IMG/VR virus record: IMGVR_UViG_3300000976_000008
Location: 344,350 to 408,349 of that record
Length of the DNA stretch: 64,000 bases
Source of the DNA: a virus
Lineage: Duplodnaviria > Heunggongvirae > Uroviricota > Caudoviricetes
Strand: one strand, 5' to 3'
Shown: in pieces, positions 46,730 through 64,000 of the stretch
Layout: each line of letters starts with the position of its first letter
How positions within the stretch are numbered: position 1 is the first letter of the stretch
Notes under the pieces: generated by a model
Told to the model about the DNA's origin: nothing
Databases searched by the model: none
What the model saw: the letters and a program-made list of their open reading frames with translations, nothing else
Position numbers and translations under genes: made by a program

Positions 46730-47256
46730 AGATTATTTTTGTTGCGATATGCCGCAATTTGCCAATTCTTAAGCGGTATCGAATCTTTCAGATAAGAATC
46801 AGACTTAGTTAAGTACTCTACATATGCCTTGTCACCTAAGAATAATTTATCGTGAGCTATTTTATCCAATAGGAATTCATTAACTCTTTTCCTCAATTCT
46901 CTAGCTTCACCAGAGAAAATTATTCTCCTAGGATACGTTACTATATCAGGAGTATACGAACTGAAAACATCATCAGAATTCAAGGATTCATGTCTATTTT
47001 GAGTATTGGTCCGAAAATTATTAACAATCATTTGGGGGTAATTCTTACCCAAAAAATCATATAATTTCTCAGCTCCTCCGAGACTGGAGACCTTATCCAA
47101 AACATCAAGCATTATGCGATTATTTGAACTGCAACCTTTTGATTTTCTCATATCCTGAATGAACTCAGAATACAATTTCTCATCAAAATGATAGAGCCAA
47201 GACTGCCACGAAGGAGAGGTAGCAAGATTGCAGAATTTTTCAGTCCGAATTTTCAT
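46726..47256 (-). CDS. Hypothetical protein
   Basis: Coupled ORF. Confidence 0.6.
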   Translation of the reverse strand: MKIRTEKFCNLATSPSWQSWLYHFDEKLYSEFIQDMRKSKGCSSNNRIMLDVLDKVSSLGGAEKLYDFLGKNYPQMIVNNFRTNTQNRHESLNSDDVFSSYTPDIVTYPRRIIFSGEARELRKRVNEFLLDKIAHDKLFLGDKAYVEYLTKSDSYLKDSIPLKNWQIAAYRNKNNL

Positions 47257-50200
47257 TAAGCTAATGGGAAAAGGACTGTTGCTATTTGATACGATAAGTG
47301 TCTAACACCATCTGGATTACCTTTTGGACTTGTAAACTCAGAATTAACTAATTTTTGAGAAACCAAACTATTCAAATTAGCATCATATTTAAATGAGACA
47401 GAATCAACTTCTGGAATCGGAGCAAAATTCACACCATCAAAAGTAGGCCAAGCAAATGATGGATGACCATGGCTGTCACTAAACTTAGCGATACAAGGTG
47501 TTCCCAAACTTTCACCGCCGCCACAAGATGTATCACTACCTATCGATCTCTTAATTACTATGTAATCTTGACCTCCAATATCCATCACAAAGCCACAGCA
47601 ATTTCCAGACAACCAACCTTGTTCATACCAACGTAGATGGTTGGTGCTCATAGAACAAGCCGAATCATCAACAGCATTAATCGCTCGTTGAGGTTGGGTT
47701 GATGTGCGTTTTTTCTTTCTTGTAGAAATTCTCTCTATTTTATCTGATTTCTTAAGTATGTCAATCTGGACTTCACCAGATGATCTCTGCAACGGCATTG
47801 TCGGGAAATAGAAAGAAACCACACCACCCTCATGTGAGAATGGCAATGTCAATCCTTCATAAGCATTTCTACCATCTTCCAGAGAGTAAAATTCGCCTTT
47901 ATCCAAGAACGTTGCACTCTTTTTTTGACCATTATCCGTAAATTGAACTCTAACATTAGCCCTATATGAACCATTTATAGATGCGGTAGTGCCGGTGATA
48001 ATAGCGACAAATTCACCAGCAGGCAAATTCAAAGAAGCACCATTAACAGCAGATCCAGCATTGATCAAAGGATCAACAGCTAATTGAGCTTGATACGACG
48101 GATCGTACTTCGAAAACTCAGAAGTAGATTGAGCAGTAGCTTTTGCAGCAGAAGCTGAAAAAATGAAAGGGGTGCCGCACATACCAAGAGCTTCAATAAT
48201 AGCATCAGATGCAGCAAAAGGACTAACATCTAAAGCTCTATTAGTGGAAGCTGTCACAAATTTTCCACCTGTTGTCTCAGCATATTCTTTCAAACTATCA
48301 GCAGCTTCAGGAATGAAGGTGTTGTCTAAAGTTGGAACATGGATAGAACTAATTATGATATTATTGTCTTTTGCTTTATTAGCAACAGCAGTTACCTCTT
48401 CCGGTGTTCCTTTTATTTTGTTATTATCAAGTTGATCAGTATATTCCGGAACCTCATCTGTGATCACAATGATCACTTTTCTATGATTCTCAAATGGATC
48501 ATTACCAAACACAGGTAAGAGTCGTTCAATTGCAGTATCTACAGCTACTGTATGTCTAGGGAAGAATGGTATATCAACTCGGGATCTTTCATCAGGAAGA
48601 TTTTTAATATCTTCTAGGTGTTCCCCAGCCCTATAGAAATGGATTCTCTTAACGATTTCAGGAGCAGAGAATCGGCCAAAACCATAGATCCCAATCGAAT
48701 ATTCAGTTGGACTGATGCTAAGAATATGGTTATAGTACATGTTCACTTGATTGACAAGCAATTCGAGGAAAGGATTCATCGACTCAGTATTGTCGACAAC
48801 CAATTGCAATGCTAATGGGTTACAATTGATTGTTTCTTCTTCTCCTCCGCCGCCGCCGCCACCGCCGCCACCATCACCACAAACATCTAAAGCTTCTGAA
48901 ATAGCTGTTTCGGCATTTTCACTTTCAGATCTGACATAAATCCCGCCTGTTTCATTAGTGTAATGCCGAAGACTGACTTCTGCTGCATCAACGAAATTGT
49001 TAGCAAAAGGAGTTTGAATTGCACTAATCGTTATACCATTTGCCGCAGCGGATTGTGCAACTCTCAAAGCTTCTTCATCACCAGCACCTGGCACTTGGTC
49101 AGTTACCACGATGATGATGTTGGCTCTATCAGTTCTCCAAGCTCCTGCAACACCATTAATAGTGTCTTCAGTAGCTTCCACATGTGCTTCTGGATTATCT
49201 CCACCACCACTAGCACTCAATTTCGCTGATTCTTGAATAAATTGTAAACGATTCGAAGTAGACATACCAAGTCGTAAAGTAACGTCATCCTTAAACGTTA
49301 CCAATCCTAGCCTGTAATCACCACCGCTGAATCTAACAATTTCATCGACATAAGCATTTACTTGGTCAACCATGACTCTAAGAAATCTACCCATACTCCC
49401 TGTATCGTCAATAACAAAGACAACATCCATGCCTCTGCTGCAATCGACTGGCGGCTCAGTAGGCGGTTCAGTAGGCGGTTCAGTGGGTGGCTCGAAAGTT
49501 CCTCCACCACATTCTGGATCTTCTTCAAAACCAGGAGTATAGCATGTAGAGTCCTTTAGAACAGTTGTGCTCGGAATACTTGAAGCTTCACCGCTTTCAG
49601 GACCATTGATAGTGATCTGAGCATCAGGAAGAGCAGCTGCAGCAACAGATTCCATATGTTGTCGTAATTGCGTGCTCTTAGACCTAGACAAGCAGCATTC
49701 TAAAGCACAGCACAAAGCAGCTTTTTGTTCGTCAAACAGATCAGACATAGTCTGAATCCAAAAAGCGACTATATCCTCATATCCCTTTTTGAGTCTGCTT
49801 ACCTCATTGAGGTACTTGCTATGCACAGCAGCAATCAAAGGCTCTATGTCTAAATAGTAAATCTCCTGAGGAGCACCAGCAATATTAGCAGCAGCAAGAA
49901 TCCAATAGCTGTTTTGCTGCCTAACAATAAATTGATCCGCTACAGCATCTGGAGAACCAACAGATTGGCGATCGAACTCAATCGCATATTTTGAATCATC
50001 ATTCGGAGCAGATGGGCTAGGTATTACCCGTGCTTCAACCAATGCTTTATTCAAATCAGGGCGTGATTCAACTTGGATAGGCTCATTCTCAAGTGTCAAC
50101 AAGCACTCAGGGGCATCTCCTTGTTCGCCTTGCTCGCCAGCAGGACCAGCAAGTATATCATCAACACCAGGTTCACCATCAATACCCTTATCACCTGCAA

Positions 50201-50669
50201 CCCCAGTGCTCCCGCGATAATCTAATTGACCTCTTCTTTGAAGCTCTGCGACTAATTTGGGCACATCTAGATTAAAATCATACCCATAAGTATGTTGATG
50301 AATCTGGAAAGGATGTTCTTCTGAAATATGTTGACCGAATTCATCAACATTCTGAATAGAAACATCGCCATCTACATTCACAAAGCTATCGGCACCAAAT
50401 AAACCAATAGCACCAGCAGTAAAAGGAGCCACACAATCATTACCAACAATTGTCGACTGTGGTGGCGGAATAACCAATCTATTGAGCTTCTTTAAATCAG
50501 ATGAACGCATAGCCCCATCTGATCTATTATCAACTAAAGGCAAAACAAGATTGCCTGATGCTAATTTAACCCAAGATTTCAAACTCCCGTCATATTCAAA
50601 CAACAAGCCTCTTCTAAGCTCAAAAATCTCACCATCTGCAGGGTTGGCTGGAAAAAGAGTTTCATTCAT
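47256..50669 (-). CDS. Virion protein with collagen-like segment and two vWA domains
   Basis: GxxGxx run (GSTGVAGDKGIDGEPG...), vWA MIDAS DVVFVIDDTGSM...GGGDNPE...VTD, a second vWA LVVDNTESM...ITDE, and PPTE and poly-G linkers. Confidence 0.85.
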   Translation of the reverse strand: MNETLFPANPADGEIFELRRGLLFEYDGSLKSWVKLASGNLVLPLVDNRSDGAMRSSDLKKLNRLVIPPPQSTIVGNDCVAPFTAGAIGLFGADSFVNVDGDVSIQNVDEFGQHISEEHPFQIHQHTYGYDFNLDVPKLVAELQRRGQLDYRGSTGVAGDKGIDGEPGVDDILAGPAGEQGEQGDAPECLLTLENEPIQVESRPDLNKALVEARVIPSPSAPNDDSKYAIEFDRQSVGSPDAVADQFIVRQQNSYWILAAANIAGAPQEIYYLDIEPLIAAVHSKYLNEVSRLKKGYEDIVAFWIQTMSDLFDEQKAALCCALECCLSRSKSTQLRQHMESVAAAALPDAQITINGPESGEASSIPSTTVLKDSTCYTPGFEEDPECGGGTFEPPTEPPTEPPTEPPVDCSRGMDVVFVIDDTGSMGRFLRVMVDQVNAYVDEIVRFSGGDYRLGLVTFKDDVTLRLGMSTSNRLQFIQESAKLSASGGGDNPEAHVEATEDTINGVAGAWRTDRANIIIVVTDQVPGAGDEEALRVAQSAAANGITISAIQTPFANNFVDAAEVSLRHYTNETGGIYVRSESENAETAISEALDVCGDGGGGGGGGGGEEETINCNPLALQLVVDNTESMNPFLELLVNQVNMYYNHILSISPTEYSIGIYGFGRFSAPEIVKRIHFYRAGEHLEDIKNLPDERSRVDIPFFPRHTVAVDTAIERLLPVFGNDPFENHRKVIIVITDEVPEYTDQLDNNKIKGTPEEVTAVANKAKDNNIIISSIHVPTLDNTFIPEAADSLKEYAETTGGKFVTASTNRALDVSPFAASDAIIEALGMCGTPFIFSASAAKATAQSTSEFSKYDPSYQAQLAVDPLINAGSAVNGASLNLPAGEFVAIITGTTASINGSYRANVRVQFTDNGQKKSATFLDKGEFYSLEDGRNAYEGLTLPFSHEGGVVSFYFPTMPLQRSSGEVQIDILKKSDKIERISTRKKKRTSTQPQRAINAVDDSACSMSTNHLRWYEQGWLSGNCCGFVMDIGGQDYIVIKRSIGSDTSCGGGESLGTPCIAKFSDSHGHPSFAWPTFDGVNFAPIPEVDSVSFKYDANLNSLVSQKLVNSEFTSPKGNPDGVRHLSYQIATVLFPLA

Positions 50670-52228: not shown

Positions 52229-53710
52229 ATGTTGAAATCACTAAAAATCAAAGAGTCACATGAAGGATCTTTGTTGAAAAAGCAGAATGTGATTGGTACG
52301 GCAATTGGTGAAAAATGGAAAAATGGTGCAACCACCGGAAAAGAGGCTGTACTAGTTTTTGTAGAAGAGAAAATGGCTAAAGAGAAAGTAGCCAAAAAAT
52401 TCTCATCTTCAGATCTCGTCCCAAGTGACATCGAAGGAATTCCAACCGATGTGATCGAAGTTGGAGTAATAAAAAAGCACAACACCTCAAAAGTGAGACC
52501 AATTAGACCCGGTTTCAGCATCAGCCACAGAAAAATCACTGCTGGGACACTAGGAGGATTCTTCATCGATAAAGATGGAGATCCAGTATTACTCAGTAAC
52601 AATCATGTCATAGCCAATGAAAATTCAGCAAGAGCTGGTGATATTATCTACCAACCAGGAACAATGGATGCAAGAGGCAGTCTAATGTTCAAAGGATGGT
52701 CAGAGCCAATAGAAAAATTGCCATATATTGCTATGTTGAAAAAATTCGTCAGAATCAAGAGGAATGGTAATAATCAAGACTCCGCAATCGCCAAACTACA
52801 TCCAAGTATTGTCAGATTAGTAAATGACACATACCCCACGATAAACCAAAAATTATCTGGATTCGGCATTGCAAGAATTGGAACACAAGTCCAAAAAGAA
52901 GGAAGAACCACTGGCCATACTACCGGTAGAGTGATTGGTACGAATGCAACATTCACAGTTGGCTATGATTTTGGACCAGCACAATTTAGAAATTGTGTAG
53001 TAACAACAGCAATCAGTAAAGGAGGAGATTCCGGTAGTATAATATTCGATATGAATATGAAGGCTGTAGGATTATTATTCGCCGGTTCGCCAACAGTAAC
53101 AATTGCGAATCCAATGAACGTAGTACAAAGCCATTATGGTCTTAGACCATGGTCTCCAGATTCAATAAGAGTCCCAGATCCAATAGCAATGTTTGGACTT
53201 AGCTGGGAGAAAATGAAATCAGCATCTTCTAAATTAGAAAAGGTAGATGATATAATTACTATGGAGTCCGGAGCCAATCAATACTGTTATTACGAATCCG
53301 CGTTGCAAAAACCAATAAAATCAGTATCATGCACTATTAATACTGGTTCAGATGTAGGGGCAACTTGGGGACCAGGATTAGTAGTTGGATGGCCCAATGG
53401 AATGCTGAAAGTCAACTTAAGGAAAGAGACTTTTGGTGGATATTATAACAGCAATTATAATATCAGTGTTGGTGAAACGAAACCAAACACAAATTATCCA
53501 GTCAGAATTCGGAGATCACGCACCACATGGGTTGGCGAAGTGATGGATTCCAACAAGTGGTACACAGTAATAGAGGTACCGCTGAGCACTTTTCCAAATA
53601 ATCCAATTGTCGTTAGAGTTGGGAAAACAGCTCTACTCGGCGGTAACATCGATCACAATCCAATAGGTGATGTGGGAAGATGCACTATAAGCGATTTCAA
53701 GATTTCCTAA
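52229..53710 (+). CDS. Trypsin-like (S1/Nal1-type) serine protease with C-terminal beta domain
   Basis: GIPTDVIE, GTLG, SNNHV (His), DSAIA (Asp), GRTTG.T.G and GDSGS (Ser). Confidence 0.9.
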   Translation: MLKSLKIKESHEGSLLKKQNVIGTAIGEKWKNGATTGKEAVLVFVEEKMAKEKVAKKFSSSDLVPSDIEGIPTDVIEVGVIKKHNTSKVRPIRPGFSISHRKITAGTLGGFFIDKDGDPVLLSNNHVIANENSARAGDIIYQPGTMDARGSLMFKGWSEPIEKLPYIAMLKKFVRIKRNGNNQDSAIAKLHPSIVRLVNDTYPTINQKLSGFGIARIGTQVQKEGRTTGHTTGRVIGTNATFTVGYDFGPAQFRNCVVTTAISKGGDSGSIIFDMNMKAVGLLFAGSPTVTIANPMNVVQSHYGLRPWSPDSIRVPDPIAMFGLSWEKMKSASSKLEKVDDIITMESGANQYCYYESALQKPIKSVSCTINTGSDVGATWGPGLVVGWPNGMLKVNLRKETFGGYYNSNYNISVGETKPNTNYPVRIRRSRTTWVGEVMDSNKWYTVIEVPLSTFPNNPIVVRVGKTALLGGNIDHNPIGDVGRCTISDFKIS

Positions 53711-54004: not shown

Positions 54005-55363
54005 TTACGTTACGGGTTCAGGAATCCAAGACTCATCGATCCATTTATGAGTAACAAATTCCAATGGTTCTTGCCCAGGTCTACTCCTCAACTGAAGTAT
54101 ATGTGAGTTTTCCTCACCTATCACATCGAGCAAGTCATTTAAGTGAGGAGTAGGACCATGAGTCATACCATATCCAGTATCACTCTCTATTCCTATTGCG
54201 TAAACAGTATCTGGTCTGTTTTCTCCTTCTGTTCGCGGCTCTCCATCTCTAGCCCAAGAAGCGAGATATGTCTTATTGATTGCATAGGCATATCCGGTGT
54301 TGCCAGCTCTCAATTCTGGTGGGACATGAACAGATTCATTATTACGAACATCATCCATTGCTGCATCAATAGCATAGTATGCCGCTTTATTCCTTTCACT
54401 CATAGCCATCTCAACAGTTGCTTGAGCCATTGGGATACGACATTCTGGCATCCCTGTTCTCTCAGTAGCAAAACAAGCAGCCATTGCTGTAGTCATCGCA
54501 TATGGATTACCTGAGCAGTCCTCAAAGGCAGTAATCAACATACGCCTACAAATATATGCAGGATCTTCACCAGAGAGAATCCATTTCGCTAACCAATATA
54601 TCGCACCATCAACATCTGAATTCTGTATCGCTTCTTGGTAGCAATGAGCTAAATCAAAGTGATCATTTCCTTTAGAATCGAATACTATATGCTTATCAGG
54701 AATAGCAACCTCTATATGCTCCCTAGATATAGTATCATCATCTATCAGAACTTTTATGCAAGTCTCCAGAACAGTAATTGCTTTTCGAGCGTCACCACTA
54801 CAACGAGTTGCAAGCAATAGAGCAGCATCTTTACTTATAGTCAGATTTCTCCCATTCGCTTTATAATGAGATTTCACCCTCATTATCAATTTCAACATAT
54901 CCTCTTTCTTCAACGGTTCTGCTTCCATAACCAAGCAGCGAGAAAGAATTGTTGAATTTACAGCGAAACCAGGATTCTCAGTTGTGGCACCAAATAGAGT
55001 AACAGTACCCATTTCAACAGCGGGTAACATTATATCTTGTTGTGATTTACTCCACCGATGAACTTCATCAACAAACAAGATTGTTCGATGTTCTGATTTC
55101 TCAGCAGCAGTTATTGTGGCTCTCAGGTCTTTAACTGTAGCCTTAGTCGCATTCAATTGGCGAAAATTAGAATCTGTTTCGTTGGCTAAACATCGAACTA
55201 TTGAGGTCTTGCCTATACCAGGAGGTCCCCAGATTATCGTACTTTGATATTCTTTCGTCTCTACCATCCTTCTCAGCAATTTTCCCTTACCAAGAAGGTG
55301 TGATTGCCCTATTATATCATCTAAAACGTTGGGGCGAAGGGCGGCTGCTAATGGCAAACTCAA
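54005..55363 (-). CDS. rarA: Replication-associated recombination protein A (RarA/MgsA AAA+ ATPase)
   Basis: PLAAALRP...IGQSHL, WGPPGIGKTS, LFVDEVHR, GATTENP, GDAR, GEDP and GMPE. Confidence 0.95.
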   Translation of the reverse strand: MSLPLAAALRPNVLDDIIGQSHLLGKGKLLRRMVETKEYQSTIIWGPPGIGKTSIVRCLANETDSNFRQLNATKATVKDLRATITAAEKSEHRTILFVDEVHRWSKSQQDIMLPAVEMGTVTLFGATTENPGFAVNSTILSRCLVMEAEPLKKEDMLKLIMRVKSHYKANGRNLTISKDAALLLATRCSGDARKAITVLETCIKVLIDDDTISREHIEVAIPDKHIVFDSKGNDHFDLAHCYQEAIQNSDVDGAIYWLAKWILSGEDPAYICRRMLITAFEDCSGNPYAMTTAMAACFATERTGMPECRIPMAQATVEMAMSERNKAAYYAIDAAMDDVRNNESVHVPPELRAGNTGYAYAINKTYLASWARDGEPRTEGENRPDTVYAIGIESDTGYGMTHGPTPHLNDLLDVIGEENSHILQLRSRPGQEPLEFVTHKWIDESWIPEPVT

Positions 55364-56019
55364 AACGGAACGTCCTGATTTTTCTTAGTTAAAGTTGCTA
55401 TCCCTTTAAGCACGGATTCAAAGCCTTGTTGGGAAATCTTCTGTTCTTCGAATATCTTACCAGCATTTGTATCGGTAATATCGTAAGCTTCATTCCAAAT
55501 CGGTTTTGCGAGTTTATCGATTTGTGCTACATCTGCTTCGCCAACAACGAAACTTACATCTGTCCAGCTTGAGTCAGTAAAGTTTCTTCCTCCAGTGACA
55601 CCAATCACACCACTAGAATATTCAAATATTGCTGATTTCAGATGCAACTCAGTCGTCATTTTCCAATTGAATTCAGGAAAGAATTCAGCATGGTTGACGT
55701 GTCTGAGAAGCGTGCGAACATACTTCTTTTCGCAATCGAGACAAGCCGTTCTATCTCCACAACTCCTATAATTGGCGACTCCTACCAATATATTGACATC
55801 TGGGAGTTTTCTCATCGACTCTACAATATCACGAGTCGCAAGTCTATAATCATCTCCCCATTCAGTAGTATCTCTACCATCGTAGGTAATTCCAAGATAA
55901 GTCCCAAAAGTTGAGATGAAGACTCTTTTTGGCTTTTTAGCTACACACTTTTGCAAAAATTTGTTGTGTTGCTTGATATCTAGGAACATTTTCATCTTAG
56001 ATCCCTCCACCATTCTCAA
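55360..56019 (-). CDS. Phospholipase D/nuclease superfamily protein (single HxK motif)
   Basis: LHLKSAIFE...VTGGRNFT; start probably MKMFLDIK. Confidence 0.7.
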   Translation of the reverse strand: MRMVEGSKMKMFLDIKQHNKFLQKCVAKKPKRVFISTFGTYLGITYDGRDTTEWGDDYRLATRDIVESMRKLPDVNILVGVANYRSCGDRTACLDCEKKYVRTLLRHVNHAEFFPEFNWKMTTELHLKSAIFEYSSGVIGVTGGRNFTDSSWTDVSFVVGEADVAQIDKLAKPIWNEAYDITDTNAGKIFEEQKISQQGFESVLKGIATLTKKNQDVPF

Positions 56020-56272
56020 AGAGATCAGGAATTGGAGTTAGAACTAAATCAATAGAGAAATGATCGGCCAAATGTTCAAGCACATCATAAATGGAAGAAT
56101 GATAATTTTTGTAAATTGAATTAGGAGAGGGATCTGCTGGCCCACGTCGATTTTTGAGCACCCTAAATTTACCAAAACTATTCACAACTGCTCTATAATC
56201 AGAGTCAAATTTCAATCTTGCATTTGCATTAGCTTTACTCTCATCTAGCACAACTACAACTAAGCTCATCAT
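55997..56272 (-). CDS. Hypothetical protein
   Basis: Starts 11 nt downstream of the rRNA-mimic element. Confidence 0.55.
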   Translation of the reverse strand: MMSLVVVVLDESKANANARLKFDSDYRAVVNSFGKFRVLKNRRGPADPSPNSIYKNYHSSIYDVLEHLADHFSIDLVLTPIPDLFENGGGI

Positions 56273-56282
56273 AATCCTAAAA

Positions 56283-56592
56283 AATGGTGTGCTGTTACGC
56301 CAAAGGGCACGCGGTCAATTCCGCTGGCTACTAGATCATCCCTCAAAATCATGAAGTCACTAGTACGTTGATTAGCCTGAATGATACAGAGGTCACATCG
56401 AAGATCTTTGTCACAGGTTGATCTCACAAACCCGGCCAAAAACCAATACAACAAGAGCATTGGCAGTGTCAGAACTAACTCTGTTCTGAAATTACAATGG
56501 TGGGGTTACGATTGACGTTACGATACTAACACACTCTGTATCCTAATCGCCCACTCTTTAAATGATGGCTGCTCCTAAGCCCACATCCCATT
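56283..56592 (-). ncRNA. Structured RNA: split mimic of the 23S rRNA GTPase-associated centre (H43/H44, uL11 site) with 252-nt insert
   Basis: 5' half AAUGG-GAUGUGGGCUUAGGAGCAGCCAUCAUUUAAAGAGU (56592-56553) and 3' half GCGUAACAGCACA-CCAUU (56300-56283) join to 58 nt. 42/48 positions match E. coli 23S 1056-1103 as recalled, with a fully compensated closing helix. Confidence 0.8.
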
Positions 56593-56596
56593 AGAA

Positions 56597-56780
56597 AGGT
56601 GTCTGGTTGGGCTAAAGCCACAATTTCCCAACCAGACGAGAAATGATCTACCTAACGTCTAATCGGTAGAAGAGACACCCGATCAATTCACCATACCAAC
56701 AGCTAACGCAAGGTGGCGGTAATAGTGAATCTATTGCAAACCATCGTGACTAGATCGCAAGAAATGTATGTCGCCACCCG
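56597..56780 (-). other. Highly structured non-coding leader upstream of the rRNA mimic
   Basis: Stems GGUGGCG/CGCCACC, AUUCACUAU/AUGGUGAAU, UCUACC/GGUAGA, GUCUGGUUGGG/CCCAACCAGAC and GGUGUCU/AGACACC. Confidence 0.55.
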
Positions 56781-56800
56781 TCCCATCCCTCAAATACAGA

Positions 56801-56833
56801 GAACGCCTCCGAGCCGGAATCTCGGAGGCGTTC
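56801..56833 (-). terminator. Intrinsic terminator-like hairpin
   Basis: Perfect 13-bp stem GAACGCCTCCGAG/CTCGGAGGCGTTC, followed on - by TCTGTATTT. Confidence 0.7.
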
Positions 56834-56912: not shown

Positions 56913-57374
56913 TTACACGAGCATAAAATCGTGGTTTTCTGCAATTGCAACACTCACTTGGTGTGGATCACCAAGACGTACATCATCCAGTGCTGCGAAT
57001 CCCATTTCTCTAGCCTGATCCCAAGTAATTCTCTGACGCTTCTTGCGAGCAGACATCTTGGCACGACGTGCCATAGTTCGAGCCAGACCCCTACGGTATC
57101 CTCGATCCTGATCGCCCTTCTTACTATCATCGTATCTCTGAGTGACGTATTGGACAGCTTGTTGTCCATCATCAGGATCGAAGCAAGAAATAAGGGTTGG
57201 GAGAAGCTCAATCAGTACAGTGACAATGCTGCCAGCATTCAGACCCATCATCTTCTCATTGCTCTCAAGACGTTGAGCAATCATGTGTGCACGAGCTTCT
57301 GTTTGCACACCTACGGGCTTAGCGTACTTCATGGAACTCATCTTCATGGATTCCATCAGTTTTTCTTCATCCAT
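56913..57374 (-). CDS. Hypothetical protein
   Basis: GGAG SD; hydrophobic IVTVLIELLPTLISC segment. Confidence 0.65.
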   Translation of the reverse strand: MDEEKLMESMKMSSMKYAKPVGVQTEARAHMIAQRLESNEKMMGLNAGSIVTVLIELLPTLISCFDPDDGQQAVQYVTQRYDDSKKGDQDRGYRRGLARTMARRAKMSARKKRQRITWDQAREMGFAALDDVRLGDPHQVSVAIAENHDFMLV

Positions 57375-57846: not shown

Positions 57847-58194
57847 TCAAAGAGAGGAGATGCCTTCGATGACAACAAGACTTTCATTCTTAGGAACAAA
57901 TTTCGGGATTCTATAAAAATTATTATTAGCCATCGAAAAAGTTCCAACGTAATCGCCATCATCATAAGTGAATTCAGATTCAACCATTACATTGCCATAA
58001 GAATCATGGGTGGTTTTATCACTTATTGGACTAGTATATCTAGCTATGAGAATATTCGTTTCATTCGGATTCTCTAAGCCGTTTGTGTCCATCCAGATCC
58101 TAGTAGAAGGCCGACAATAACAATATGCACTCGTTGTGAGAGTTTTGATATCAACGTCGGTCACAGCTAATACTCTGAAAGACCTAAATTTCAT
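57847..58194 (-). CDS. Hypothetical protein
   Basis: Coupled to thyX. Confidence 0.55.
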   Translation of the reverse strand: MKFRSFRVLAVTDVDIKTLTTSAYCYCRPSTRIWMDTNGLENPNETNILIARYTSPISDKTTHDSYGNVMVESEFTYDDGDYVGTFSMANNNFYRIPKFVPKNESLVVIEGISSL

Positions 58195-59081
58195 AAAATC
58201 CCAAGATCCATTAGTTTAGAACGACATTCATCTCGTTCTCTACAACGTTTCAAATTCTTCCAAGACGAATCTTGAGCTTTGAGGAAAGCTTCCTCATCAA
58301 AAGGTGCTCCAGATTCCATCAAACGAGCAATGACACCCTTATCCAACCGGGTAAGGAACATAGAACCCATTCTATAATCTTCGAAAGCTTCCCAAACGAC
58401 CGGGAACAGAGGCTTAATTATCTCATTACCAATAGTTGTGGCATACTCTCGTATTTCAGTTTGAGCATGAGAATCCATTCTCAAGCTCAGGAAATGACAC
58501 AAATTATGTAAGTCTACTTTCCAATACGCTTCCGTATATGTCGAAAGTGGTAAGTCTTTACGTGCCTGCTCCCTAGCGATCCCCTTATTGATACGGCTAT
58601 CATAGACAGACTTAATCTTCGATTGAAGCTCCATCTCTTCAATTGATAAAGATTCTCCATCCTCTATAGATAAGAATCCATCACTACCTTGTCTATTCGA
58701 TGAAGCTTGTTTCCTCCACATTCCTGGAGGAGTTTTTTGAGCAGCATCAATAGCTAATGAATACCTAGTGCTATATTCATTAATATTGGCAGTTCTATGT
58801 CTTGCCCATTGTCTCCAACAATCCATTGGAACTCTTACAAGAATCTTAACTTCTGCCATTTCAAATGGAGTAGTATGGCGATGGCGAAGCAAATACCTGA
58901 TGAGGGTTCGGTCATCAGAAACTTTTTTGGTTCCTTGCCCATAACTGACGCGAGCAGCTTGGACGATAGAACTGTCATCGCCCATTACGTCAACTAAGCA
59001 AACAAAGCCATCATCAAGAACTTGGAACTTCTTCCAACGTAATTCTTCTAGCATTCTTCCTCGCTCCAAGTATAAATCCAT
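58191..59081 (-). CDS. thyX: FAD-dependent thymidylate synthase
   Basis: AARVSY, HTTPFE, RQWARHRTANINEYSTRY, REQARKDLP and LRMDSHAQTEIR; start may be the second Met (59054). Confidence 0.97.
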   Translation of the reverse strand: MDLYLERGRMLEELRWKKFQVLDDGFVCLVDVMGDDSSIVQAARVSYGQGTKKVSDDRTLIRYLLRHRHTTPFEMAEVKILVRVPMDCWRQWARHRTANINEYSTRYSLAIDAAQKTPPGMWRKQASSNRQGSDGFLSIEDGESLSIEEMELQSKIKSVYDSRINKGIAREQARKDLPLSTYTEAYWKVDLHNLCHFLSLRMDSHAQTEIREYATTIGNEIIKPLFPVVWEAFEDYRMGSMFLTRLDKGVIARLMESGAPFDEEAFLKAQDSSWKNLKRCRERDECRSKLMDLGIL

Positions 59082-63615: not shown

Positions 63616-64000
63616 ATGGATAAGATTCAATTCAAAGTGAATCTTCCGGCGAAGGCAGCACCAGATGTTGTTTCTCGGGAACTCACAGTCAAAGTAGGCA
63701 CAGACGAAAAGGTAGTAGTGCTTGCTGCTGATGCAGAAGAAACAGAAGTTCTTGAAGGTGATCAAGACGCTACTGTCGAATTGTCACTCGTTGACATCGA
63801 CGATGGCGGAAACCGATCAGCTGCAAGCACAGCCACTGCTGTTTTGACTGACACAGTAGCACCGCCACAACCAGGCGAAATGGGCGTTATGCTAACTGGC
63901 GAAACGCACGAAACACCTGCTGAAGAAGATCCGGTCGAAGAAGATCCGGTCGAAGAGGCTCCTGCTGAAGAAGAGGCTCCTGCTGAAGAAGAGGCTCCTG
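63616..64000 (+). CDS. Ig/Fn3-like protein, paralog of 61566-62126, partial (runs off the right edge)
   Basis: MDKIQFKVNLPAKAAPDV...SLVDIDDGGNRSAASTATAVLTDTVAPPQPG then EEDPV/EEEAPA repeats; not in the ORF track. Confidence 0.85.
   Translation, partial: MDKIQFKVNLPAKAAPDVVSRELTVKVGTDEKVVVLAADAEETEVLEGDQDATVELSLVDIDDGGNRSAASTATAVLTDTVAPPQPGEMGVMLTGETHETPAEEDPVEEDPVEEAPAEEEAPAEEEAP

Follow-up and report, generated by a model that had tools for sequence, protein, structure and literature searches.

The closest described counterpart of the RNA analysed here is the GTPase-associated centre (GAC) of 23S rRNA, which comprises the top of H42 together with H43 and H44 (nucleotides 1051–1108). As work from the Draper laboratory established, the isolated 58-nt rRNA fragment folds autonomously, binds L11 tightly and also binds thiostrepton. 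Crystal structures were reportedly obtained by Wimberly and by Conn, both in 1999, and Conn, Gutell and Draper are said to have noted in 1998 that the 1072/1092–1099 base triple covaries in rRNA. Munishkin and Wool reportedly found in 1997 that EF-G binds oligoribonucleotides of the sarcin–ricin loop (SRL) and of the GAC.

Ribosomal-protein leaders (the L10 leader, RF00557, and those of L1, L20 and S15) likewise copy a protein-binding site of rRNA, and the copy described here likewise lies just upstream of an ORF. However, those leaders are cis-regulators of cellular ribosomal-protein operons and reproduce only local features, whereas the phage RNA is a near-complete rRNA domain, lies mostly between tRNA genes rather than beside ribosomal-protein genes and has no Rfam match. 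Stable non-tRNA RNAs encoded in phage tRNA clusters are exemplified by the T4 species 1 and 2 RNAs. These, together with GOLLD and ROOL, resemble the phage mimic in being phage-encoded, structured and often tRNA-adjacent, but they have no sequence or Rfam relationship to it and, to our knowledge, none of them copies an rRNA domain. RNA decoys offer a further parallel. ToxI-like pseudo-antitoxin RNAs are one example (PMC3475682); these, tRNA-like structures and 6S RNA as a promoter mimic follow the same principle of diversion, but the molecule imitated is a different one. Finally, the T6SS toxin Tre23 of Photorhabdus ADP-ribosylates H44 at nucleotides 1095–1098, which indicates that proteins recognising the GAC as a substrate exist; the hairpin loop that it targets is displayed by the phage RNA as well, at 56300–56291 (PMC8661411).

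The element described here lies on the − strand of a virus record of 408,349 bp that is rated complete, within its final 64 kb; this 64,000-nt stretch, the whole of the DNA analysed, is referred to as the window, and positions are numbered within it. The element has the same joined length, the same H43 and H44 pairs and the same junction sequence as the GAC of 23S rRNA. It differs in not being part of an rRNA, in being closed on itself by a stem of unconserved sequence, in having H44 interrupted after 1090 by an arm and a UUUR linker, and in being encoded by phages only. The initial annotation of this DNA expected that no dedicated family would cover it, and our searches agree: Rfam 15 contains no model for it, gave nothing at the gathering score in the 64-kb window and, in the 1.3 kb around the element, returned no relevant match at E ≤ 10. 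No description of a phage rRNA-domain mimic or decoy was found in the searchable literature, the coverage of which excludes most subscription journals. The family is thus apparently undescribed, although an earlier description is possible. Our main reading, to which we assign a probability of roughly 55%, is that this region gives rise to a non-coding RNA of ∼310 nt, which acts in trans and imitates the uL11/factor-docking site off the ribosome.

Core and arm of the window copy

The element consists of two rRNA-like segments separated by an arm and a linker, listed here in the 5′ to 3′ order of the RNA with the hairpin nearest the arm base given separately:

56553–56592, − strand: 5′ half of the mimic (= 23S rRNA 1051–1090), reading AAUGGGAUGUGGGCUUAGGAGCAGCCAUCAUUUAAAGAGU from 56592 to 56553; AAUGG stem strand, entire H43-like hairpin with its loop, and UUUAAAGAGU junction (UUUAAAG, then the 5′ strand of H44 ending in G1089–U1090); assigned from the sequence, from identity to E. 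coli and from family conservation
56305–56552, − strand: inserted arm, 248 nt; basal helix GGGC (56552–56549)/GCCC (56308–56305), covarying family-wide; interior as in the MFE fold, with a predicted long helix (56548–56534 with 56391–56370), a multi-hairpin domain and then two more hairpins
56309–56326, − strand: hairpin GCGG-AAUUGA-CCGC beside the basal helix; stem 56324–56321/56314–56311, loop 56320–56315
56301–56304, − strand: linker, UUUG in the window copy, joining the arm to G1091; constant within the family as UUUG or UUUA, and rarely as UUCG or UUGG
56283–56300, − strand: 3′ half of the mimic (= 1091–1108), reading GCGUAACAGCACACCAUU from 56300 to 56283; H44 hairpin GCGUAACAGC, then ACAC, then CCAUU; contains A1101, which pairs with U1090, followed by C1102, A1103 and the closing-stem strand CCAUU

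On direct reading, the two halves join into 58 nt that correspond to 23S rRNA 1051–1108; the sequence given by the initial annotation is correct to the base, as is its assignment of A1067 to 56576 and of A1095 to 56296; the window copy retains both adenines. Its figure of 42 identities over the 48 positions 1056–1103 was reproduced against the actual E. coli rrlH (L090), with which the joined core shares 45 of its 58 bases overall. Against two Firmicute 23S rRNAs, both contaminants in the phage database, the core scores 48/58 and 50/58, the latter with Staphylococcus. Three bases of the window copy, G1089, U1090 and A1101, form the core signature of the phage family described below. G1089 and U1090 are shared with the two Firmicute rRNAs, whereas at 1101 the compared rRNAs (E. 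coli and the two Firmicutes) have U in place of the A that forms the U1090–A1101 pair of the phage family. G1069 is found elsewhere in the family only in the copy of the Vibrio phage.

All of the H43 pairs (1057–1059/1079–1081 and 1062–1065/1073–1076) are formed in the window copy, and the H44 pairs G1091–C1100, C1092–G1099, 1090–1101 (as U–A) and G1087–C1102 are present. With C1072/C1092/G1099 and G1071/G1091/C1100, the sequence also keeps the partners of the predicted base triples, as previously proposed. The closing stem consists of 5 bp, a 4 × 4 pyrimidine internal loop and another 3 bp, compared with a family median of 9 bp. In a thermodynamic fold of the complete element the GAC does not appear (z = −0.67), as is expected when a fold depends on tertiary contacts.

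A bacterial LSU rRNA gene (RF02541) was considered and rejected. No LSU rRNA reaches the Rfam gathering score in the 64-kb window and the element is flanked by phage genes, in agreement with the claim that flanking rRNA sequence is missing. The initial annotation had also expected Rfam to return two short LSU_rRNA hits; this expectation failed, as the hits are absent from the local 1.3 kb even at E ≤ 10.

Between 1090 and 1091 lie 252 nt (56552–56301, − strand), which the initial annotation treated as one insert. The length stands, and the segment is better viewed as a helix-closed arm of 248 nt plus a conserved 4-nt UUUG linker. The proposal that the insert closes on itself through GGGC/GCCC, GAUUAG/CUAAUC and GAUACAGAG/CUCUGUAUC is consistent with the MFE fold, where all three helices are predicted. 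The z-score of this fold is modest (−2.1), with 4 of 200 shuffles folding equally well. Relatives of the arm interior were found in none of IMG/VR, the JGI metagenomes, the related phages and the cultured-phage set. Local alignment of the insert and of the 208-nt tract upstream of the element with E. coli 16S, 23S and 5S rRNA gave nothing above shuffles, and the SRL motif was not found in the window insert.

The phage family and selection on its structure

The phage-database search suggested by the initial annotation showed the split design to recur, with at least 112 distinct phage contigs carrying it; six cultured phages can be added. A pattern for the 5′ half located at least 80 loci in IMG/VR, and all of the readable ones are split identically, in the order ...AAAGAGU, insert, YUUUR, GCGUNNNAGCACAC; further pattern scans were pooled to give 112 unique members. 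Among cultured phages, blastn identified Xanthomonas jumbo phage XaC1 and Aeromonas phage 4_4572, and a shorter blastn query added Cronobacter phage GAP32, Yersinia phages fHe-Yen9-03 and fHe-Yen9-04 and Vibrio phage 2.275.O. The contigs of the members are mostly 40–440 kb in length. In ∼186,000 bacterial and archaeal species genomes there were 11 matches, seven of them true 23S rRNAs of divergent lineages and the other four tRNA-rich, phage-like contigs inside MAGs, one of which matches the IMG/VR locus L045 in its flank, its insert ends and its insert length. Because the matches in cellular genomes are either true 23S rRNA or phage-like, we consider the family to be essentially phage-restricted.

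The split design consists of a covarying H42-like closing stem, H43, and an H44 that is interrupted after U1090 by a helix-closed arm and a UUUR linker. Within H44, the insert forms the additional arm of a three-way junction. Its position and the linker are family constants, and its content is variable; insert lengths range from 45 to 357 nt among the 112 members, so that the 252 nt of the window copy are ordinary.

The apparent invariance of the core is largely imposed by the search patterns, and covariation was counted only at positions that the patterns left free. The pair 1058:1080 is formed in 53 of 53 members, as GC (20), UA (19), AU (10) or CG (4). From 1055:1104 outward, the closing stem is 77–100% paired over nine positions with at least four pair types at each, compared with 20–45% after a one-position shift of the partner. 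The 4-bp basal helix of the arm is paired in 53, 53, 48 and 40 of 53 members at its successive positions, and only in register with the 4-nt linker, which reads UUUG in 43 members, UUUA in 7, UUCG in 2 and UUGG in 1. In a formal test on a 17-member alignment, 94.4% of the cells were paired versus 73.6% in shuffles, and the covariation score was 0.569 versus 0.157, a value reached by none of 500 shuffles; slid controls gave 0.09–0.15.

Covariation extends to the tertiary structure. The base triple 1072/1092/1099 is C/C/G in 75 of the 112 members, U/U/A in 29, U/U/G in 7 and C/U/A in 1; it is thus concordant in 111 of 112, with 1092–1099 being U–A or U–G in 37. When members were picked for U1072, a choice made on the 5′ half alone, U1092 was present in all 20 with a readable 3′ half, accompanied by A (17) or G (3) at 1099. 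The triple of the 23S GAC has the same C/C–G or U/U–A alternatives, and we take the alternation within the phage family to be the one described for the real rRNA triple. Given the relatedness of the sequences, the counts cannot be read as independent events; their direction, however, is unambiguous.

The loop adenines are less constrained. Position 1067, in the part of the H43 loop left free by the patterns, is A in 95 of 112 members, G in 15 and U in 2 (85% A, 13% G), and A1095 is present in 102 (91%) with another base in 10; positions 1096–1097 vary freely. By comparison, A1101 is present in 110 of 112. The lower conservation of A1067 and A1095 relative to the fold weakens any reading that needs an intact factor/thiostrepton face in all members. 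Judged from the sequences, what is kept would be the three-dimensional fold of the GAC, more strongly than the adenines that contact factors and thiopeptides.

These data bear directly on what kind of object the element is. Compensatory change in the closing helix and in the 1090–1101 pair, which the initial annotation had noted by comparison with E. coli, is matched by covariation throughout the family, the tertiary triple included, and the same covariation favours its view of a selected, structured rRNA-mimic RNA over host rRNA. An assembly artefact that joined host rRNA to the phage, or a functionless rRNA fragment decaying after capture, would account for the similarity to rRNA, which is the one observation in its favour. 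The family data refute it and leave its probability close to nil: the A1101 signature differs from the compared 23S rRNAs, the design is common to independent metagenomes and cultured phage genomes, the changes are compensatory, and flanking rRNA is missing.

Family-wide covariation also supports the proposal that the two halves would assemble without splicing. Alternatively, the 252 nt could be a group I-like self-splicing intron, the removal of which would leave a contiguous 58-mer, and U does precede the 5′ junction and G the 3′ junction in the window copy and in most members. However, inserts are as short as 45 and 62 nt, compared with a group I size of at least ∼200 nt, and 7 of 53 unique members have A at the 3′ junction, at odds with an invariant terminal G. 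Insert content is non-homologous between members, and neither Intron_gpI (RF00028) nor any other Rfam model matches at E ≤ 10. We therefore rejected group I and other self-splicing introns as highly improbable.

Genomic setting

Most members are associated with tRNA genes. In 35 of 53, a same-strand tRNA gene lies within 500 nt, and in the tRNA-adjacent members the closing stem ends a median of ∼5 nt from the end of the tRNA. Placement flush between tRNA genes implies that RNase P and the enzymes that process tRNA 3′ ends would cut the element free as a discrete, stable RNA. Stand-alone copies away from tRNAs occur in the window phage, GAP32, the Yersinia phage, the Vibrio phage and XaC1. A built-in intrinsic terminator is not a family feature, as a U-tract after the closing stem is not enriched in stand-alone relative to tRNA-flanked copies. 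Across the family, no protein gene is conserved beside the element. A uL11 gene was found in 0 of 37 carrier records, and bL12 scored over the cut-off in 1 of the 37.

The surroundings of the window copy contain the following features:

56801–56833, − strand: intrinsic-terminator-like hairpin of 13 bp, ending the upstream gene (56913–57374)
56593–56800, − strand: non-coding tract of 208 nt from the upstream terminator to the element, with a strong 11-bp hairpin (56637–56627/56611–56601)
56273–56282, − strand: 3′ flank UUUUAGGAUU; four U opposite four pyrimidines (56596–56593), then AGG (56278–56276), which can pair with CCU (56599–56597)
55997–56272, − strand: 91-aa ORF, the start of which lies 10 nt beyond the element; matches neither Pfam nor PHROG families

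The element is single-copy in the window phage genome, and a search for further divergent copies, with a relaxed scan included, found none. ARAGORN identified no tRNA genes in the window; the genome has 23, all on the strand of the element, and the nearest is >100 kb away. No promoter was identified in the 208-nt upstream tract, the overall structure of which is not significant (z = −1.55). The 91-aa ORF has no homologues in any of the fetched loci.

Comparison with related phages indicates that the locus is variable. The element is missing throughout the records of phages related via the neighbouring RarA/MgsA-like ATPase (48–70% identity), one of which is 98% complete, and is therefore dispensable for this lineage. 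In the relative L086, a similar hairpin follows the homologous gene and marks the upstream border of a variable cassette. In the closest relative, two unrelated ORFs occupy the space that separates the conserved terminator from the homologue of a 219-aa gene, which argues that the element and the small ORF together form such a cassette. The window copy is thus atypical of the family: it lacks a nearby tRNA, its closing stem has only 5 bp, no relatives of its arm were found, and it sits in a variable cassette. Its expression would probably be driven from a small cassette of its own, ahead of the 91-aa ORF, and not from a tRNA array. The copy indicates that the element also moves outside tRNA arrays, as a cassette that stands alone.

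This arrangement raises the question of local regulation. The AGGA of the 3′ flank is the Shine–Dalgarno sequence of the ORF starting at 56272, and the outer CCU/AGG pairing that would cover it is predicted in the MFE fold. Together with the short closing stem, this pairing leaves some slight chance of local control in cis, in which the element would regulate translation of the 91-aa ORF, for example through uL11-stabilised pairing over the Shine–Dalgarno sequence. An ORF begins 10–30 nt past the element not only in the window but also in GAP32, fHe-Yen9-03 and XaC1. However, the ORFs that follow stand-alone copies are mutually unrelated, most members are flanked by tRNA genes rather than ORFs, and the pairing over the Shine–Dalgarno sequence amounts to 3 bp, so that we regard a cis-acting leader as distinctly improbable. 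A ribosomal-protein leader in the strict sense (RF00557) was rejected, there being no Rfam match and the downstream ORF belonging to no known family.

Proposed imitation of the docking site and the variable arm

A trans-acting imitation of the GAC could work as follows. The RNA would rebuild the top of H42, H43 and H44 as a free-standing, self-closed domain, with a family-specific extra arm leaving H44 between U1090 and G1091, and in most members it would be released from a tRNA array by tRNA-processing enzymes as a stable RNA. Because the 58-nt rRNA fragment folds by itself and binds uL11, the phage RNA should, by analogy, fold alike and capture uL11. The captured protein would be that of the host, since the carrier phages encode none. 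Imitation off the ribosome could then divert uL11, RelA or a translational GTPase, or else a toxin or defence effector directed at the GAC, and the variable arm would add lineage-specific modules, such as the SRL in some members, which is not present in the window copy. By this analogy with the rRNA fragment, we infer that the element functions as an off-ribosome decoy of the uL11/factor-docking site. Its concrete versions would rank with a uL11 sponge first, a decoy for toxins or defence effectors second and a factor trap third. That large phages produce stand-alone versions of the factor-docking platform, with the GAC in every case and the SRL added in some lineages, and that these, once loaded with host uL11, serve against host toxins or defence, or as traps in the stringent response or for GTPases, and so constitute a new principle of anti-defence or host takeover, is a tentative proposal.

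The activation of RelA depends on uL11. A uL11 sponge would titrate the host protein, leaving L11-poor ribosomes that fail to activate RelA and thereby blunting the stringent response. The strictly conserved and covarying positions form the binding site of the uL11 C-terminal domain, whereas A1067 and A1095 are free to vary, and the phages concerned have no uL11 of their own (0/37 records). On the other hand, the SRL copies found in some arms would go unexplained, as uL11 does not bind the SRL, and it is uncertain whether uL11 could be stripped stoichiometrically from pre-existing ribosomes. Taken singly, this version is rather unlikely.

A second version of the decoy, also doubtful when taken by itself, is that of a substrate: an abundant, free GAC, in some members with an SRL, would absorb toxins or defence effectors directed at the ribosome, which during infection might otherwise cleave or modify the corresponding ribosomal sites. 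We know of no anti-phage system that targets the GAC, which counts against it. Its merit lies in the choice of what is copied, namely exactly the GAC and the SRL, and in the usual site of the element among phage tRNA genes, where it would parallel the tRNA arrays by which phages counter tRNA-directed nucleases. The sporadic, accessory-like distribution, including the variable cassette of the window, is compatible with such a role, and variability at 1095–1097 and 1067 would suit an arms race. Recognition and ADP-ribosylation of H44 nucleotides 1095–1098 by Tre23 provides a concrete example of such an activity, but that enzyme is an interbacterial T6SS toxin (PMC8661411). A further difficulty is that the decoy would have to compete with tens of thousands of ribosomes.

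If imitation off the ribosome is correct, these phages produce a whole rRNA domain, folded, as a free RNA in solution; such mimicry would be of a new class among viruses, and its target would be the most conserved functional site in the large subunit. The element would then be the rRNA counterpart of phage tRNA arrays, giving a function to a common unannotated gene of phage tRNA regions and drawing attention to defence toxins or host factors whose point of action is the uL11 stalk base. Since carriers are in culture (Cronobacter, Yersinia, Vibrio, Xanthomonas and Aeromonas phages), the family is directly testable. It would also supply natural, evolution-tested variants of the 58-nt GAC that serves as a model of RNA folding and antibiotic binding.

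The arms are modular. A CACCCC-hairpin-GGUAAGG module is present in 19 members, and 21 arms, including those of GAP32-like phages, end in ...CCCUUAGAG. A copy of the SRL, AGUACGAGAGGA with ≤2 substitutions, occurs in 9 of 112 arms versus 0.1 expected; the arms that bear it are all 310–357 nt long and carry it on stems of differing sequence. One additional arm has an SRL variant with a GGGA loop. The SRL copies in 9 of 112 arms tie the family to the factor-binding site, and some lineages would appear to copy both RNA halves of the binding site for translation factors.

The length, modularity and lineage specificity of the arms, with their recurring modules, together with the rigidly fixed position and linker, might also mean that the arm is the functional part and the GAC its handle, a scaffold that would stabilise or deliver the arm, either by bringing in abundant uL11 or by offering a compact fold resistant to nucleases. 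Arms of only 45–62 nt occur, however, conservation resides in the core and not in the arm, and the window arm is without any relatives, all of which make this reading improbable.

An arm that emerges from H44 might hinder the access of some natural ligands. Hairpins with an AAUUGA or AAAUGA loop recur in ∼15 arms, including that of the window (56326–56309), a weak enrichment over the 4.4 found in shuffles; in L045, L055, L065, L048 and L078 the same AAUUGA-type loop is carried on stems of differing sequence.

Sarcin-ricin loop copies and cultured carriers

The arms of nine members of the phage split-GAC RNA family (L110, L120, L138, L140, L142, L144, L149, L174 and L181) contain a near-exact copy of the sarcin-ricin loop (SRL), AGUACGAGAGGA, at insert positions ∼197–217, and the arm of a further locus, L022, has an SRL variant with a GGGA loop at insert position 223. 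The SRL copies are borne on stems of unlike sequence in arms of 310–357 nt. These members thus reproduce the factor-binding site in both of its RNA components.

Unannotated copies of the split-GAC RNA, flanked by hypothetical genes, are present in cultured Rak2/GAP32-like enterobacterial jumbo phages, making these carriers handy systems for experiments:

L107 ∼896–1140, copy in Yersinia phage fHe-Yen9-03
L105 ∼896–1150, copy in GAP32

The Yersinia copy has the U1072/U1092–A1099 version of the base triple, together with C1065, A1068 and G1069.

23S rRNA matches are found in several short (2–7 kb) GenBank 'phage' records (Staphylococcus, Listeria, Escherichia, Salmonella, Klebsiella and Dickeya), and the record of Paenibacillus phage Pd_22F (L003) has such a match at its end. 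Rfam confirms 23S rRNA in Pd_22F and in Staphylococcus SA 1306 Kay (L004), which points to host contamination of these two records.

Surroundings of the element in the window

The hairpins and protein genes neighboring the element are as follows:

56801–56833, terminator-like hairpin of 13 bp, 3′ of a 153-aa gene
56601–56637, − strand, strong hairpin of 11 bp with a 15-nt loop, directly 5′ of the element
58191–59081, ThyX thymidylate synthase
54005–55363, RarA/MgsA-like AAA+ ATPase
52229–53710, opposite strand, 493-aa trypsin-like peptidase with an NAL1_N-like N-terminus
47256–50669, 1137-aa protein with vWA domains

No U-tract follows the 11-bp hairpin. A hairpin similar to the 13-bp one occurs at ∼980–1013 in L086, a related phage lacking the element. 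Downstream of this hairpin the window carries the non-coding RNA and a 91-aa ORF, whereas L086 has a 191-aa and a 116-aa ORF there. With its differing cargo, the slot 3′ of the terminator-like hairpin looks like a cassette-exchange hot spot.

Ends and tRNA genes of the virus record

Short tandem repeats occupy both termini of the whole virus record (G000), at 1–60 and 408290–408349 (window end, ∼63940–64000), and would translate into an E/A/P-rich repeat of GAAGAGGAAGCACCTGCT-like units. The break in the assembly probably falls within a repetitive gene. The record may not be truly linear but a circularly permuted form.

Outside the window, ARAGORN labels two neighboring tRNAs with UCA anticodons as SeC (G000 287439–287650, on the strand of the element); with this anticodon, they are opal-suppressor-like. 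Near this pair, ARAGORN also reports two tRNA-Trp(CCA) genes at G000 294209–294367.
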